Shown: piece after piece, positions 26,607 to 33,145 of the stretch | Layout of the letters: each line of letters opens with the position of its first letter | Numbering within the stretch: position 1 is the first letter of the stretch | IMG/VR virus record: IMGVR_UViG_2879742664_000006 | Reading direction: 5' to 3' (one strand) | DNA length: 33,145 nucleotides | Origin: a virus | Taxonomy: Duplodnaviria; Heunggongvirae; Uroviricota; Caudoviricetes | Translations under genes and position numbers: made by a program | Notes under the pieces: model-generated | What the model was told of the DNA's origin: nothing | Seen by the model: only the letters and a program-made list of their open reading frames with translations | Database searches by the model: none

Positions 26607-27716
26607 ATGACCGACACCACCATGCAATTGCTCAGTCAGGGCACGGCCCCCGTGAAAATGCCGGATTTTGATATTCTCTCGGAGGGTAAAACGCTGTCAG
26701 GCGTGGCGGAGCGCCTGATGAGCCTGTAACTGACCGACAACCGGGGATTTGAGGCGGACCAGCTCACCATCACGCTGGATGATGCGGATGGTCAGTTGCA
26801 GCTACCGCCACGGGGCGCGCGTCTGACGGTTCTCATTGGCTGGAAAGGGGAACCGCTGACAGAAAAAGGCACTTACATTGTTGATGAAATCGCTCACGAA
26901 GGACCGCCGGACAGGCTGACTGTTTCAGCCAGAAGCGCAGATTTTCGGGATGAATTTAACGTTAAACGTGAGGTGTCCTGGCATGATGTGACCGTTGAGC
27001 GTGTGGTATCCGCCATCACTCATCGGTACGGTCTGAAACCGCAAATCAGCGAAATGCTGATGGATATCGAAATCGACCACGCCGACCAGACCGAAGAAAG
27101 CGACATGTCCTTTCTTACGCGCATGGCGGAAATGCTGGGAGCAATCGCCACGGTAAAAAGCGGCAATCTGTTATTCATCATGCCAGGTGGTGGCGTGAAC
27201 GCACAGGGGCAGCCGTTGCCCTCGTTCGCCATTACACGCAGCAGCGGCGATCGCCATCAGTTCCGCATTGCTGACCGCGAGGCGTATACGGGGGTACGCG
27301 CCTACTGGCTTGATCTTAATTACGGGAAAAAGAAAAAAGTCAGCGTGAAACGCCGCAAACCGCCAAAACCCAAAAAGGAGAAAAGCAGCAGTCGGGAAGG
27401 CGACTATATGGAAGGTGCGGAAGGCAACGTGTTTGTGTTACGCAAGACTTATCAGAACGAGCAGGCAGCAAGACGCGCAGCGGCGGCAAAGTGGCAGCAG
27501 CTACAACGCGGAGCCGCATCATTCTCCATCACGCTGGCGCGTGGTCGTGCAGAACTCTATCCCGAAATGCATGGCACAGTGACAGGCTTTAAAAGCGAGA
27601 TTGATTATCAGGACTGGACTATTGCAAAAGCCGAGCACACCATTGATAACAGCGGCTTTACCACGCAGCTTGAACTTGAAGCAAAAATCCCGGAATGGAT
27701 AGCAGAAACAGAATAA
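26607..27716 (+). pseudogene. D: P2 gpD-like tail protein with an in-frame TAA stop at codon 41 (26727-26729)
   Basis: ATG 26607 with RBS agggaggg; track ORFs 26475..26729 and 26796..27716 are in the same frame, separated only by TAA; D-like sequence reads continuously across it (...GVAERLMSL*LTDNRGFEADQLTITLDDADGQLQLPPRGARLTVLIGWKGEPL...). Confidence 0.8.
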
Positions 27717-27964: not shown

Positions 27965-30900
27965 ATGATTGGACAATTTTTAAGTGCAACAGAGATTTTA
28001 GCAAAGAACTATGTTCGTAATAAAATGGTTAAAAATCCATTTTATTCGAATTTAAAATGGAATTTTATTGAAAAAAACATCATAAGATTAACATCCTCAC
28101 CGGTTAAATCAGTACTTTGCATATCAGCTTTTTCATTTGTACTACTTTATGTTGGATATTTAAACGAATTATTTATAAAAAATAATCTTTTACATTATTT
28201 CCCGTTTAGGCATTCATTAACCGAATGGCAAACAACCATTTTAAGTGGCCAATTGACAATTATTGGTATTGTATACCCCCTTGTTATAGGTTTAGTAAGT
28301 GTCTTATTCCAAAAAAAGGCAGATAGAAAAATAGCCCAAACTGCTTATCAGCGTTACTCAGGATTCATGCTTGCTGGACTCAGCGGGCTTTTCTTATCAG
28401 GATTTATACTTCTCAGTGTACTAATTAAAACTGTCTTTGGAAGTTATCTTTATGGTATAGCTTGTCTAATCAGCATATTATGGCTTTTGATAAACATAGT
28501 TCTTTCTATTTGGTTCTTTATCGTGAGTCTTGAAATTCTTGATGATGTAAAACGGCAAATAATTATAAAGCGATACATTGCCTTCGAAATAGTAATGCCC
28601 CATATTTGTAACAAAATATCAGCCAAGCTTAGGTTATACCCTATCTATCAAAAACATAACTATTCAAATTTAGAAATCACGCAAGCCGATTACAAAGGAG
28701 AATACATATCTGTGGCTAGCAGTTATTCTAAGGAAGATGAGTTAAGTTTATATCACCGTCCTTTTCAACTTACTCTTAATCTTATTAATTACCAACTAAA
28801 AAAGAAGAATCATTTTGCGTCATTTGTCATTGGTGATAATCGTACAAAAGAAACAGAATCCACGGGTAAGATACTTTTTAGCGTTAAAAATATCAAACCA
28901 GACAGCTTATTAATAAAAATACTTAAGCAATGTTTTTATAGGGCTCCGATTAAAGGAGGAGATTTTTCCGTAAGTCTTACAATGCAGGCTATAACAGCAG
29001 ATACGTATATGTATCTGCGGGATTCTGATCTCATTAGTTTTGACAATGCTATCTCTGCATTAATTAATAACTTTAATAATCTCTGCGATTTGTATTTTTT
29101 TCAAGATGATAATACCAACAATAACTTCTTACTGATCACTACAGAATTATTTGAACGGAGTTTTCAATATGAGTTTTCAGATGAAGTTTATAAAATATCA
29201 AATAATTCCATGGATAAAATTAATCTTTCTGAAAGATTTTTTGAATTATGTCTTTGGAGCGGAGTGCGTATTATCAATAATAGAAAACATCTTATCAGCA
29301 ATGAACTTTGTATCTATATGGGAATTACTCGTTCACAATGGTCAATATTAACAGAATGGTTCCGAAACAACCAATCACTCTTAAATGCCTCGCTTCGTTC
29401 ACGTTATAATCGTATATTAAGAACCTATATCACTGTTTGGGAGCAATATCAAGAAAGCATAAACTTTCGTTTCTGCAATACAGAGAATTCAGATTTATTT
29501 GAATTATTTTGCAAAACGCAACTACAAGAACTTCCATCGATGATTATTGATGCAACACAGACTCGCGATCCTTCTACTATTGATACAGCCGTCGATCTTA
29601 TTAACCGATGGCAGCACTCAATGAATATTGACAGCCATTCGGTAGAAAAATACAGTTACAAAGGCCAGCTTTTTAACCCGGGTTTTTTCATATCCAAAAA
29701 ACTAAACTTCAATTCAGACAGAGAGTGGTTCAATATTGCCATCATAAATGCGTTGACTGACATGCGTATATGCACATGTCTTTATCTGACATCAAGAATC
29801 AATACTTCTGACAAACTAATGACACATTACATTAAACTTATTTTAGAGGGTAAACTTATTGACCAAACCGGTGGATATGAAACTCCCACTGAAGAAATTG
29901 ATAATGCAAGCCAACTAATCAAGATATTAATTAGAATCTGCCTGTGGACATGGTCTGAAAATATGGAGCACAATGGGTGGATGAATAGTTTAGCAAGGCG
30001 TTTACGTGACTATGATAAAACAGACATGGTGATGGGCAGAGTTTACAGTAATGTTTTTGACTGTGGATTTATTGATATGGAACAATCATGGGTTCAGCTA
30101 TTATTAATTTTTTCTAACAAGAACGATAGCGTATCAAAAGAAATAAAAGAAGCAATAGAAAACAACTATATAACATATCGTGAGAAGCAACGACTCATTG
30201 GAGTATTATCAAAAATTTGTAACTCCATCGAATACACTAAAATCAAGCTGACTTTAACATTGGACGATCTCCAAACAAAAAAAGAAAACTTAAGAAAGTT
30301 GCTTCAAGAGCATATTAACATGCTAAAGAAAGATCTTGATATGAGACTTCAGGATGCTGCCATAGATGTACATCGACTAGATAGCACTGCACGTAAAACA
30401 TCAGAACATCTTCGTAAACGCATCAAGAAAACGCTCCCTCTTTCACTTTTCAAATCTATTGATTTTAAGCAGGCTAGCGATTGTTTCACAAAACATAAGA
30501 TATCTATTAAGATAGATAAAGAACCGTATGCCGAAGGAATAGAATCCATCCCTTATATCAATGAAGGTGATATTCAAGCAGACTTAATTCTCAAGGACAT
30601 CCAGAGAATAATACTTTCAAATTTATTTAGCACTGGCTGTTCGCAACATACCGTAATAGAAGATTTCAATATGTTGATTGATCACATAAAATCATCTGCT
30701 GACTTGGCTGGCAAACTGGTTCTTGTGATGAGTAAAGAGATCTTTCAGCAATATAATCGTATGCTTTTCGATAATCCCAACCTCAGAGAACTAATGAGAA
30801 AAAATGATGATGGCTCTATGAACATAACTACTGAATCCGGTACCCGTAAGGTTTACTTCTTACCATTTGTTAATCAACCATTTTCTCTTGTGGTAAAGGA

Positions 30901-31084
30901 TAACTACTTCACTAAATTAATTATTAGAGAATATGATAATAATAAGTTAGTAAATGTCACTTCAGAGAATATCAAAAGTGACTCAGATAAATTCAAGCTA
31001 ACTCTTAACTATGAGTTGAATATAGTATTTGAAGGAAACGCTGATTTAAAAATAGCTCACTCGCAAAGAGTGACATCAGAATAA
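27965..31084 (+). CDS. Large membrane-anchored protein of unknown function (1039 aa), AT-rich cargo gene
   Basis: Single uninterrupted ORF, visibly AT-rich (about 17 G+C in the first 60 nt) against GC-rich phage genes; N-terminal hydrophobic helices (residues ~50-190), then ~850 aa with no recognisable motif; possible -10 box TATAAT at 27869-27874. Confidence 0.8.
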   Translation: MIGQFLSATEILAKNYVRNKMVKNPFYSNLKWNFIEKNIIRLTSSPVKSVLCISAFSFVLLYVGYLNELFIKNNLLHYFPFRHSLTEWQTTILSGQLTIIGIVYPLVIGLVSVLFQKKADRKIAQTAYQRYSGFMLAGLSGLFLSGFILLSVLIKTVFGSYLYGIACLISILWLLINIVLSIWFFIVSLEILDDVKRQIIIKRYIAFEIVMPHICNKISAKLRLYPIYQKHNYSNLEITQADYKGEYISVASSYSKEDELSLYHRPFQLTLNLINYQLKKKNHFASFVIGDNRTKETESTGKILFSVKNIKPDSLLIKILKQCFYRAPIKGGDFSVSLTMQAITADTYMYLRDSDLISFDNAISALINNFNNLCDLYFFQDDNTNNNFLLITTELFERSFQYEFSDEVYKISNNSMDKINLSERFFELCLWSGVRIINNRKHLISNELCIYMGITRSQWSILTEWFRNNQSLLNASLRSRYNRILRTYITVWEQYQESINFRFCNTENSDLFELFCKTQLQELPSMIIDATQTRDPSTIDTAVDLINRWQHSMNIDSHSVEKYSYKGQLFNPGFFISKKLNFNSDREWFNIAIINALTDMRICTCLYLTSRINTSDKLMTHYIKLILEGKLIDQTGGYETPTEEIDNASQLIKILIRICLWTWSENMEHNGWMNSLARRLRDYDKTDMVMGRVYSNVFDCGFIDMEQSWVQLLLIFSNKNDSVSKEIKEAIENNYITYREKQRLIGVLSKICNSIEYTKIKLTLTLDDLQTKKENLRKLLQEHINMLKKDLDMRLQDAAIDVHRLDSTARKTSEHLRKRIKKTLPLSLFKSIDFKQASDCFTKHKISIKIDKEPYAEGIESIPYINEGDIQADLILKDIQRIILSNLFSTGCSQHTVIEDFNMLIDHIKSSADLAGKLVLVMSKEIFQQYNRMLFDNPNLRELMRKNDDGSMNITTESGTRKVYFLPFVNQPFSLVVKDNYFTKLIIREYDNNKLVNVTSENIKSDSDKFKLTLNYELNIVFEGNADLKIAHSQRVTSE

Positions 31085-31415: not shown

Positions 31416-31426
31416 TGGATTTGCCC

Positions 31427-32331
31427 CTATATTTCCAGACATCTGTTATCACTTAACCCATTACAAGCCCGCTGCCGCAGATATTCCCGTGGCGAGCGAT
31501 AACCCAGCGCACTATGCGGATGCCATTCGTTATAATGCTCGAACGCCTCTGCAAGGTTCTTTGCTGCCGTTAACCCGTCTGGTTTGGGCATGATACTGAT
31601 GTAGTCACGCTTTATCGTTTTCACGAAGCTCTCTGCTATTCCGTTACTCTCCGGACTCCGCACCGCCGTGTTCTTCGGTTCAAGTCCCAACATCCGGGCG
31701 AACTGGCGTGTTTCATTAGCCCGGTAGCATGAACCATTATCCGTCAGCCACTCCACTGGAGACGACGGAAGATCGTTGCCGAAGCGGCGTTCCACCGCTC
31801 CCAGCATGACGTCCTGTACTGTTTCACTGTTGAAGCCGCCGGTAGTCACCGCCCAGTGCAGTGCCTCACGATCACAGCAGTCCAGCGCGAACGTGACACG
31901 CAGTCTCTCTCCGTTATCACAGCAGAACTCGAACCCGTCAGAGCACCATCGCTGATTGCTTTCTTTCACGGCCACTCTGCCTGTATGTGCCCGTTTCGAT
32001 GGCGGTACAGCAGGTTTTCGTCAAGCAACAGCGCATTCTGGCGCATGATCCGGTAAACACGTTTGGCATTGATCGCAGGCATACCATCAAGTTCTGCCTG
32101 TCTGCGAAGCAGCGCCCATACCCGACGATAACCATACGTGGGCAGCTCTCCGATAACATGGTGTATACGGAGAAGCACATCCGTATCATCAGTGTGACGA
32201 CTGCGGCGGCCATCCATCCAGTCATCGGTTCGTCTGAGAATGACGTGCAACTGCGCACGCGACACCCGGAGACAACGGCTGACTAAGCTTACTCCCCATC
32301 CCCGGGCAATAAGGGCGCGTGCGCTATCCAC
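31427..32331 (-). pseudogene. insD: IS2 transposase OrfB (InsD) with an internal 1-bp frameshift near 32019-32025
   Basis: Split into track ORFs 31966..32331 ([12 protein letters not shown]...[28 protein letters not shown]) and 31427..31975 ([17 protein letters not shown]...); the shifted frame reads [24 protein letters not shown], so one base is missing around cttga(a)cgaaaacc. Confidence 0.8.
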
Positions 32332-32654
32332 TTTTTTGCCCGTCCATATTCAACGGCTTCTTTGAGGAGTTCATTTTCCATCGTTTTCTTGCCGAGCAGG
32401 CGCTGGAGTTCTTTAATCTGCTTCATGGCGGCAGCAAGTTCAGAGGCAGGAACAACCTGTTCTCCGGCGGCCACAGCAGTAAGACTTCCTTCCTGGTATT
32501 GCTTACGCCAGAGAAATAACTGGCTGGCTGCTACACCATGTTGCCGGGCAACGAGGGAGACCGTCATCCCCGGTTCAAAGCTCTGCTGAACAATTGCGAT
32601 CTTTTCCTGTGTGGTACGCCGTCTGCGTTTCTCCGGCCCTAAGACATCAATCAT
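32289..32654 (-). CDS. insC: IS2 transposase OrfA (InsC)
   Basis: [56 protein letters not shown]...; track ORF starts 15 codons upstream at 32699. Confidence 0.85.
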
Positions 32655-33004
32655 CTGTACTCCAATGACTAGTCTAAAAACTAGTATTAAGACTATCACT
32701 TATTTAAGTGATACTGGTTGTCTGGAGATTCAGGGGGCCAGTCTACCGTGGCATGAACTGCCAACTTCACACAGAGGAAACAATCAGATGAGTTTGCCCT
32801 TACCTCAGAATTAACGAGCAGAATTGCCGGAGTAACAAAAAAGCGATAGATTACGCGCGGGTGCCTTTCGGCTGATGGTCGGAGGGAATACCTGAAGGCC
32901 AGATGTGGAAAGGCCCCGGAAAACATTTTTGTTTAACCGAGGCCCTAACCGTCTACCCTAAGCAAGTGATAGGTTAGCGCCTCCCCGAAAAAGGAGCAAG
33001 CGCT

Positions 33005-33145
33005 ATGTCGCAAAAATCGCTTACGGCCATCACGTTCTGCGTGACGGCAATCCTCATCATCTGGATGCTGCACGGTTCGCTGTGCGAAATACGGATGAGC
33101 TTCTGGGGAGCGGAGTTTGCGGCGTTCTTACAGTGTAAGCAGTAA
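33005..33145 (+). CDS. Hok/Gef/PndA-family type I toxin (small membrane peptide), putative
   Basis: 46-aa ORF MSQKSLTAITFCVTAILIIWMLHGSLCEIRMSFWGAEFAAFLQCKQ: one TM helix then SLCEIR and E(F)AAF motifs as in Hok/PndA (from memory); RBS aaggag 8 nt upstream. Too short for the ORF track. Confidence 0.5.
   Translation: MSQKSLTAITFCVTAILIIWMLHGSLCEIRMSFWGAEFAAFLQCKQ

Follow-up and report, generated by a model that had tools for sequence, protein, structure and literature searches.

A probable hok/sok-type toxin-antitoxin cassette between ogr and attR of P2-like prophages

The toxin gene and its leader

The window, by which we mean the whole 33,145-nucleotide stretch of viral DNA analysed here (IMG/VR record IMGVR_UViG_2879742664_000006), ends on a short toxin gene. 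Upstream of it lie a leader, in which an antisense RNA gene is predicted, and the last bases of an ogr gene split by an insertion sequence. The features of this end of the window are as follows.

31416-32745, minus strand: IS2 copy in ogr, with CCGT on both flanks; junctions read against the intact ogr of locus L001 (NZ_CP128578.1)
32746-32814, plus strand: 3' fragment of ogr, the P2-like late-gene activator; 69 bases, stop at 32812-32814
32824-32852, plus strand: predicted hok promoter, read from the sequence; TTGCCG at 32824-32829, 17-nt spacer, TAGATT at 32847-32852
32859-33145, plus strand: part of the hok mRNA within the window, a 146-nt leader and the coding sequence; the 3' UTR lies past the window end
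32897-32964, minus strand: predicted sok antitoxin RNA gene of about 60-67 nt; single-stranded 5' tail, hairpin from 32945 to 32912, short U-containing tail
32971-32999, minus strand: predicted sok promoter; TTGCTC from 32999 to 32994, 17-nt spacer, TAACCT from 32976 to 32971
33005-33145, plus strand: hok coding sequence; ATG start, 46 codons, 46 amino acids, its stop being the last three bases of the window

The frame at 33005-33145 encodes the peptide MSQKSLTAITFCVTAILIIWMLHGSLCEIRMSFWGAEFAAFLQCKQ, which has a single hydrophobic stretch (residues 6-22, mean/maximum Kyte-Doolittle value 2.44) and carries SLCEIR at residues 25-30 and AAF at residues 39-41. The first-pass annotation of this DNA, made from the letters alone, had taken the ORF for a Hok/Gef-family toxin on account of these motifs and of one transmembrane helix, and had placed it about 180 bp after the ogr stop. 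Both statements were confirmed: Pfam PF01848 (Hok/Gef) matches residues 7-44 with 29.9 bits against a cut-off of 22 (E 4.1e-7), PHROG 251 ('MokW-like host killing') matches the whole peptide with an E value of 1.3e-22, and the distance between the ogr stop (32812-32814) and the hok ATG is 190 nt. The peptide also aligns with the Hok family as had been anticipated. Its nearest named paralogue is HokA of K-12, with 43% identity, and the values for R1 Hok and HokC are 30% and 26%, respectively. All seven residues that are more than 80% conserved according to the logo of a Hok catalogue of 2026 (M1, C16, T18, L30, C31, E32 and E41) are present; they correspond to M1, C12, T14, L26, C27, E28 and E37 of the window peptide and are invariant in its alignment with HokA, HokC and R1 Hok. 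Homologues of exactly 46 amino acids occur in E. coli, Shigella, Salmonella and Klebsiella, and the dN/dS ratio of the reading frame, computed against 16 relatives, is 0.11-0.37. Judging by its sequence, the ORF is a genuine type I membrane toxin of the Hok/Gef family. An assignment to HokA proper was ruled out, as the HokA equivalog model NCBIfam NF007290 gives the peptide 34 bits, below its cut-off of 89.

The gene as such is already known, being annotated as 'Hok/Gef family protein' in RefSeq and as 'MokW-like host killing' in phage records. Moreover, the identical peptide is entry 72_1621 of the Hok catalogue of Escalera-Maurer et al. (bioRxiv 10.1101/2025.08.07.668861). In that preprint, the table of toxicity-test constructs includes 72_1621, 42 of the 45 constructs are toxic, and 72_1621 is not among the three named as non-toxic. 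The peptide is thereby reported, in the preprint only, as toxic in E. coli. With the exact peptide catalogued and tested, and the enrichment of hok genes in prophages published, the value of the present analysis resides mostly in a correct annotation of the locus.

As for the leader, the Rfam model RF01794 ('sok') matches 32859-33018 on the plus strand over its full length, with 46 bits and an E value of 3.5e-9. The Rfam search proposed in the first-pass annotation thus gave a mixed answer, with a significant full-length match whose score stays below the gathering score of 59; for comparison, relatives of the window locus score 38-42 bits and K-12 hokC 118 bits. The strand of the model was checked on K-12, where it matches the hokC/mokC strand, the annotated sokC lying on the opposite strand inside the match. 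What the model matches in the window is therefore the leader of the hok mRNA, and 32859 corresponds to position 1 of the model. A TAGATT or TAGAAT motif is found 6 nt upstream of this conserved mRNA 5' end and is kept in most relatives; the predicted hok promoter to which it belongs agrees with the consensus at 8 of 12 positions. At the predicted sok promoter, AGGTTAG or AGGATAG is almost invariant in 19 relatives, but the site overlaps the hok Shine-Dalgarno (SD) sequence, and its conservation is therefore no independent evidence for a promoter. Its layout is that of the R1 sok promoter. A consensus promoter scan of both strands listed neither promoter, both being below its threshold, so that the putative hok and sok promoters at 32824-32852 (plus strand) and 32971-32999 (minus strand) were assigned by position and conservation only.

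When the position of SokC is transferred through the RF01794 match, the antisense gene falls at about 32903-32960 on the minus strand. Read from the sequence, the predicted Sok RNA would start near 32963 with a single-stranded tail of about 14 nt, and both of its ends are to be taken as approximate predictions. Its predicted fold has a free energy of -29.1 kcal/mol (z -3.6), and those of two divergent relatives have z values of -6.2 and -8.1. The region 32824-33004, in which the first-pass annotation expected an antisense RNA and a leader ORF, is thus supported as containing, besides the hok leader and the putative promoter of hok, a predicted antisense gene for Sok, whose RNA folds as a hairpin. 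The leader ORF, in contrast, is not conserved, as detailed below.

Place of the cassette and state of the prophage

The window is collinear with P2-like phages at 94-98% identity over about 20 kb, with gpD upstream of the cassette. Five complete E. coli chromosomes contain its last 398 bp without a single difference, and among 5426 complete E. coli genomes, 1545 have similar sequence. Sequence 3' of the window end was read from NZ_CP128578.1 (locus L001), which is 100% identical over these 398 bp.

This neighbourhood bears directly on two readings of the first-pass annotation, neither of which we retain. The first is that a chromosomal hok gene in the host flank, just beyond the prophage end, marks the outer edge of the prophage. 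The ORF is indeed the last feature of the window and follows ogr, the final gene in classical P2, and the next annotated gene after hok in NZ_CP128578.1 is the host gene ihfA. However, in NZ_CP128578.1 the element with the identical 398 bp is delimited by direct repeats of 25 bp, AAAGAAAAAAGGCCGCAGAGCGGCC (ihfA terminator), and the right copy of this att core lies about 260 bp past the hok stop (L001 4660-4684, or 33407-33431 in window numbering). The corresponding site is empty in K-12, where btuC-ihfA is uninterrupted with neither ogr nor hok in between. Furthermore, the cassette is found with 96-99% identity in the phage records P88, P884B11, Chuche, 500465-2 and PhiR44_2. In the virion-sequenced P2-like phages P88 and Chuche, it lies between ogr and attP, and the gene order in Chuche is D, ogr, hok, com, methyltransferase, integrase, which puts hok between ogr and the gene for the integrase. 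At three integration sites in Salmonella, by ihfA, by hicAB/pgsA-uvrC and by a two-component system, the genes D, ogr and hok follow one another in this order. A hok gene in the host flank is accordingly very improbable. The same holds for the second reading, that of a plasmid stability module acting by post-segregational killing, in a window derived from a plasmid or a phage-plasmid. Hok/sok was first found as a plasmid stabiliser, and plasmids account for 17 of the 1975 places matched in E. coli; the remaining 1958 are chromosomal, however, which together with the 20-kb collinearity and the upstream gpD leaves this reading next to no likelihood.

As read from the identical locus, the hok cassette is inside the prophage. 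Since it belongs to the prophage, it is unfit as a marker of a prophage boundary or of a plasmid. Lambdoid prophages carry related copies at their ends, and an Stx-type phage also contains one. A scan of IMG/VR returned 80 loci with this hok (L012-L091), all 100% identical at the protein level and hence useless for covariation; 47 of them end exactly at the hok stop, as the window does. It is likely that the window ends there as a result of prophage calls being trimmed at gene boundaries, which would also explain why the ORF had been regarded as the prophage edge. Trimming at gene ends cuts the hok mRNA midway and removes its fbi element and terminator.

Several observations concern the distribution of the gene. 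A search of genome contigs with an alignment as query yielded only seven loci, three of them in implausible hosts, namely a Planococcaceae MAG (L005), a Vagococcus sp. (L006) and Xanthomonas pisi (L009). These carry enterobacterial hok genes (72-98% protein identity) that are most likely assembly contamination. Some Salmonella harbour tandem 46-aa hok cassettes, each with its own leader and 3' UTR (2501-2641 and 2991-3131 in L103, 2501-2641 and 2995-3135 in L104). The Rfam family STnc540, an sRNA of the ihfA 3' region, scores 172 bits in Salmonella (L093 2795-2992, minus strand) and only 41 bits in the E. coli lysogen (L001 4616-4760, minus strand), where the match crosses the core of attR, so that the sRNA might be changed by integration.

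The prophage of the window bears the marks of insertion sequences. The ogr gene is not intact: the IS2 copy, which includes an InsC-like ORF (32289-32699, minus strand), splits it, and only its last 69 bases adjoin the hok locus. The ogr/Delta zinc-finger gene annotated in NZ_CP128578.1 ends with exactly the sequence of this fragment (32746-32814). Two further IS3-family transposase pairs are located at the left end (56-1269 and about 1732-2936), and homology to P2-like phages starts only at about 1309 or 4560. With its ogr interrupted and three or more IS copies in place, this prophage is likely to be defective. No insertion sequence has entered the cassette, IS2 ending 79 bp upstream of the predicted -35 element of hok. 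Among complete E. coli genomes, the exact IS2-ogr junction of the window gave no one-piece, high-identity match, although the matches do include genes annotated as IS2 transposase. IS2 or another IS3-family element is also found beside the same hok in other E. coli (NZ_CP091029.1, NZ_CP091024.1; loci H58-H63), with junctions that differ from that of the window. The presence of insertion sequences beside a phage-borne hok recalls those that flank the hokA and hokC loci of K-12.

One more gene of this region is listed here.

27965-31084, plus strand: 1039-aa ORF between gpD (26796-27716) and ogr

Searches of Pfam, PHROGs, PADLOC and NCBIfam gave no match to this protein. In NZ_CP128578.1, the gene in the corresponding place bears the RefSeq label 'MFS transporter'. 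The ORF represents orphan cargo, located between D and ogr of a P2-like prophage.

Fold of the hok mRNA and the leader reading frame

The elements of the mRNA fold, together with the only candidate leader ORF, are the following.

32859-32869, plus strand: tac element, GGGUGCCUUUC; its partner is fbi in the full-length mRNA and ucb after 3' trimming
32903-32977, plus strand: lineage-specific 24-codon ORF in the hok frame, its TAG 28 nt before the hok ATG
32908-32917, plus strand: ucb-like box, GAAAGGCCCC, which pairs with CCGAGGCC in the closed fold
32979-32996, plus strand: hok SD hairpin of the minimum free energy (MFE) fold, GCCUCC at 32979-32984 against AGGAG at 32992-32996
33110-33125, plus strand: downstream box in hok, codons 36-41 (AEFAAF), which pairs with the hok start region 33005-33020
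L001 4450-4463, past the window end, about 52-65 nt after the hok stop: fbi element, TCGATAAGGCACCC being expected of an intact cassette

The full 410-nt hok mRNA of the identical locus has a predicted fold of -174.7 kcal/mol (z -7.1). For a comparative analysis we used an alignment of 19 complete hok loci whose proteins are 59-100% identical; the sources are P2-like phages and prophages, one Stx phage, and the ends of lambdoid prophages in Salmonella, Klebsiella, Citrobacter and E. albertii. Their RNAalifold consensus comprises 84 pairs, with 96.9% of the cells paired, compared with 35-42% after shifting the partners by one to three columns. Double changes at 19 consensus pairs add up to 77 cells, versus 27 in shuffled alignments, and none of 500 shuffles reached 77.

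In this consensus, the 5' end of the mRNA, GGGUGCC(UUUC), pairs with a GGCACCC stretch about 50 nt past the hok stop, which corresponds to the tac/fbi interaction. The two tac/fbi helices span columns 24-30/395-401 and 33-36/388-391 of the alignment (A3), and all four pairs of the latter covary. The closing helix as a whole has 11 pairs, with 96-97% of the cells paired and four pairs changed on both sides across the 19 loci. The ucb-like box and CCGAGGCC (columns 79-85/108-114) are 100% paired, with seven GC-to-AU changes. The alternative tac/ucb helix (columns 24-34/75-84) has 10 pairs and is 92.6% paired, compared with 28-61% for slid partners; two of its pairs covary in step with the fbi partner, and in folds of 3'-truncated mRNAs it forms in both of two divergent members, one from E. 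coli and one from Salmonella. The covariation in tac, fbi and ucb splits the Escherichia-type copies from all others, and for that reason it may represent only one or two evolutionary events. Around the translation start, the helix that encloses the SD hairpin (columns 148-152/172-176) is 98.9% paired, and the pairing of the hok start with the downstream box (columns 178-193 with 286-301) has 14 pairs and 99.2% paired cells, with one-sided changes only, of the GC-to-GU type. Finally, the GC-rich 3' hairpin and the terminator, both past the window end, covary. As with fbi, these elements lie outside the window and are known only from genomes identical to it over the last 398 bp. Altogether, the 19-locus alignment supports an R1-type model of the hok mRNA fold, with a predicted closed form and a tac/ucb alternative.

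In R1, hok can be translated only when mok is translated across the hok SD. The leader ORF foreseen in the first-pass annotation does not hold up in this subfamily. In the window, stop codons are present in all three frames between 32959 and 32977, and there is no ATG, GTG or TTG from there to the hok ATG. No ORF starting with one of these three codons reads into hok in any frame in 15 of the 19 loci, and stops in all frames are found 9-46 nt upstream of the hok ATG in 15 of the 19 members (one frame, 71-113 nt, in three Salmonella members). The in-frame TAG at 32975-32977 occupies an almost invariant site. The sole candidate, the 24-codon ORF at 32903-32977, lies almost exactly under the predicted Sok and loses its ATG outside the Escherichia-type copies, the members from Salmonella, Klebsiella and Citrobacter having AAG, AAA or a deletion in place of this codon. 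Its equivalents have 19 codons in P88, 15 in the Stx phage and 79 in E. albertii. Not being conserved, it was dropped as a substitute for mok. In the E. albertii locus (L008), an ATG equivalent to that at 32903, about 103 nt upstream of hok, opens the 79-codon frame, which runs through hok in the register of R1 mok; it is the sole mok-like ORF among the 19 loci. From these comparisons we conclude that the 46-aa hok subfamily is apparently without a conserved mok. A mok frame that uses a non-canonical start codon is formally still conceivable.

How, then, might the hok SD be opened? The segment GAGGC (32939-32943), which occupies the position of the R1 mok SD, pairs with GCCUC (32979-32983) in folds of the truncated RNA; for the Salmonella member it does so in the MFE structure, for the E. 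coli member in the centroid structure only. The outer part of this helix is 96.7% paired and almost invariant, with a single compensatory change, and the inner part of the GAGGC...GCCUC hairpin is 62% paired, with no support in the alignment. We put forward, as a tentative and rather doubtful proposition, that the prophage-borne 46-aa cluster 72 is a naturally mok-less hok/sok, in which hok translation would be uncoupled from any leader peptide, GAGGC would displace the anti-SD after tac/ucb pairing and Sok would cover GAGGC. The apparent mok-less control is the sole mildly new point of this work, a modest and testable one that concerns the control of hok translation.

Proposed working and related systems

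In sum, the locus is in our view highly likely to be a type I toxin-antitoxin cassette of the hok/sok type, which P2-like (Xuanwuvirus/P88-type) prophages carry as their last cassette, between ogr and attR. In the working that we propose, a long and stable mRNA of about 410 nt, transcribed from near 32859, would encode the 46-aa inner-membrane Hok. The new mRNA would be closed, with tac (32859-32869) paired to fbi, some 50 nt beyond the stop codon of hok, the SD held in its local hairpin and the start codon paired with codons 36-41. Slow trimming of the 3' end would remove fbi, whereupon tac would pair with ucb (32908-32917) and release the strand CCGAGGCC. The GAGGC thus freed (32939-32943) might compete for the anti-SD GCCUC (32979-32983) and free the hok SD directly, without mok. 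The short and unstable Sok, which would be made from the opposite strand (about 32964 down to about 32897), would bind the released region, thereby blocking activation and triggering decay. If Sok transcription were turned off, by loss of the prophage or by shut-off during induction or infection, Hok would be made and the membrane damaged. In this scheme, we infer the 3' processing, the SD-competition step and the biological role of the cassette. Its anatomy is compatible with prophage stabilisation by post-segregational killing, with help in lysis on induction and with the exclusion of other phages.

Two other views of the cassette have to be considered. It might be a decayed, non-functional relic in a defective, IS-ridden prophage, comparable to hokA, hokC and hokE of K-12. 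The three IS copies and the split ogr point in that direction, as do the insertion sequences that flank K-12 hok loci, the missing mok frame and a 3' regulatory part that lies outside the window. However, five prophages that look intact carry copies with not one base different in the ORF, the leader or either predicted promoter, the absence of mok is common to the whole subfamily, including phages sequenced from virions, and both the dN/dS values (0.11-0.37) and the preserved RNA helices argue against decay. The peptide is also reported as toxic. Decay of this kind is therefore unlikely. A possible variant, somewhat less likely than not, is that the cassette is the same and that its main role is lysis and phage release on induction, or abortive infection, rather than stabilisation of the prophage. 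In phage Sp5, sokW RNA is reported to be lost after mitomycin C treatment, with HokW being made, and phage release to be halved without the hokW-sokW locus; exclusion of T4 by R1 hok/sok is also cited. On the other hand, Sp5 HokW is a different, 51-aa paralogue, unlike the toxin of the 46-aa P2-type cassette, and the Hok catalogue reports hok genes as not enriched near defence systems (bioRxiv 10.1101/2025.08.07.668861).

Among the known systems closest to the cassette is R1 hok/sok. The two share a small Hok with one transmembrane helix and an L-C-E core, a long leader matched by the RF01794 model, a tac/fbi closing helix with a tac/ucb alternative, a GC-rich 3' hairpin and a terminator, and a predicted antisense gene embedded in the leader, whose product folds as a tail plus a hairpin. 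They differ in that the proteins are only 30% identical and have 46 versus 52 residues, no mok reads into hok, the cassette is carried by a phage and not by a plasmid, and the Rfam score is below gathering. With K-12 HokA, the peptide has 43% identity and shares WM..SLCE and AAFL.CK; the two differ in that hokA of K-12 forms a chromosomal locus, which IS150 interrupts.

A literature search for hok together with P2-like phages and ogr yielded nothing specific. The catalogue treats cluster 72 at the level of the coding sequence only and gives no analysis of mok, Sok or mRNA structure, nor a placement in P2-like phages (bioRxiv 10.1101/2025.08.07.668861). As for the hokW-sokW locus of Stx2 phages (Sp5/933W), the PHROG family matched by the 46-aa peptide is named after MokW. 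Unlike the 46-aa Hok, however, HokW has 51 residues, starts with MKQQKAM, is a different paralogue and is encoded at another place in the phage. A copy of the 46-aa type is also present in an Stx-type phage, Lyz12581Vzw, with 83.7% DNA identity. In the catalogue, this Stx-phage variant is entry 72_1589, and both 72_1621 and 72_1589 were cloned for the toxicity assay (bioRxiv 10.1101/2025.08.07.668861).
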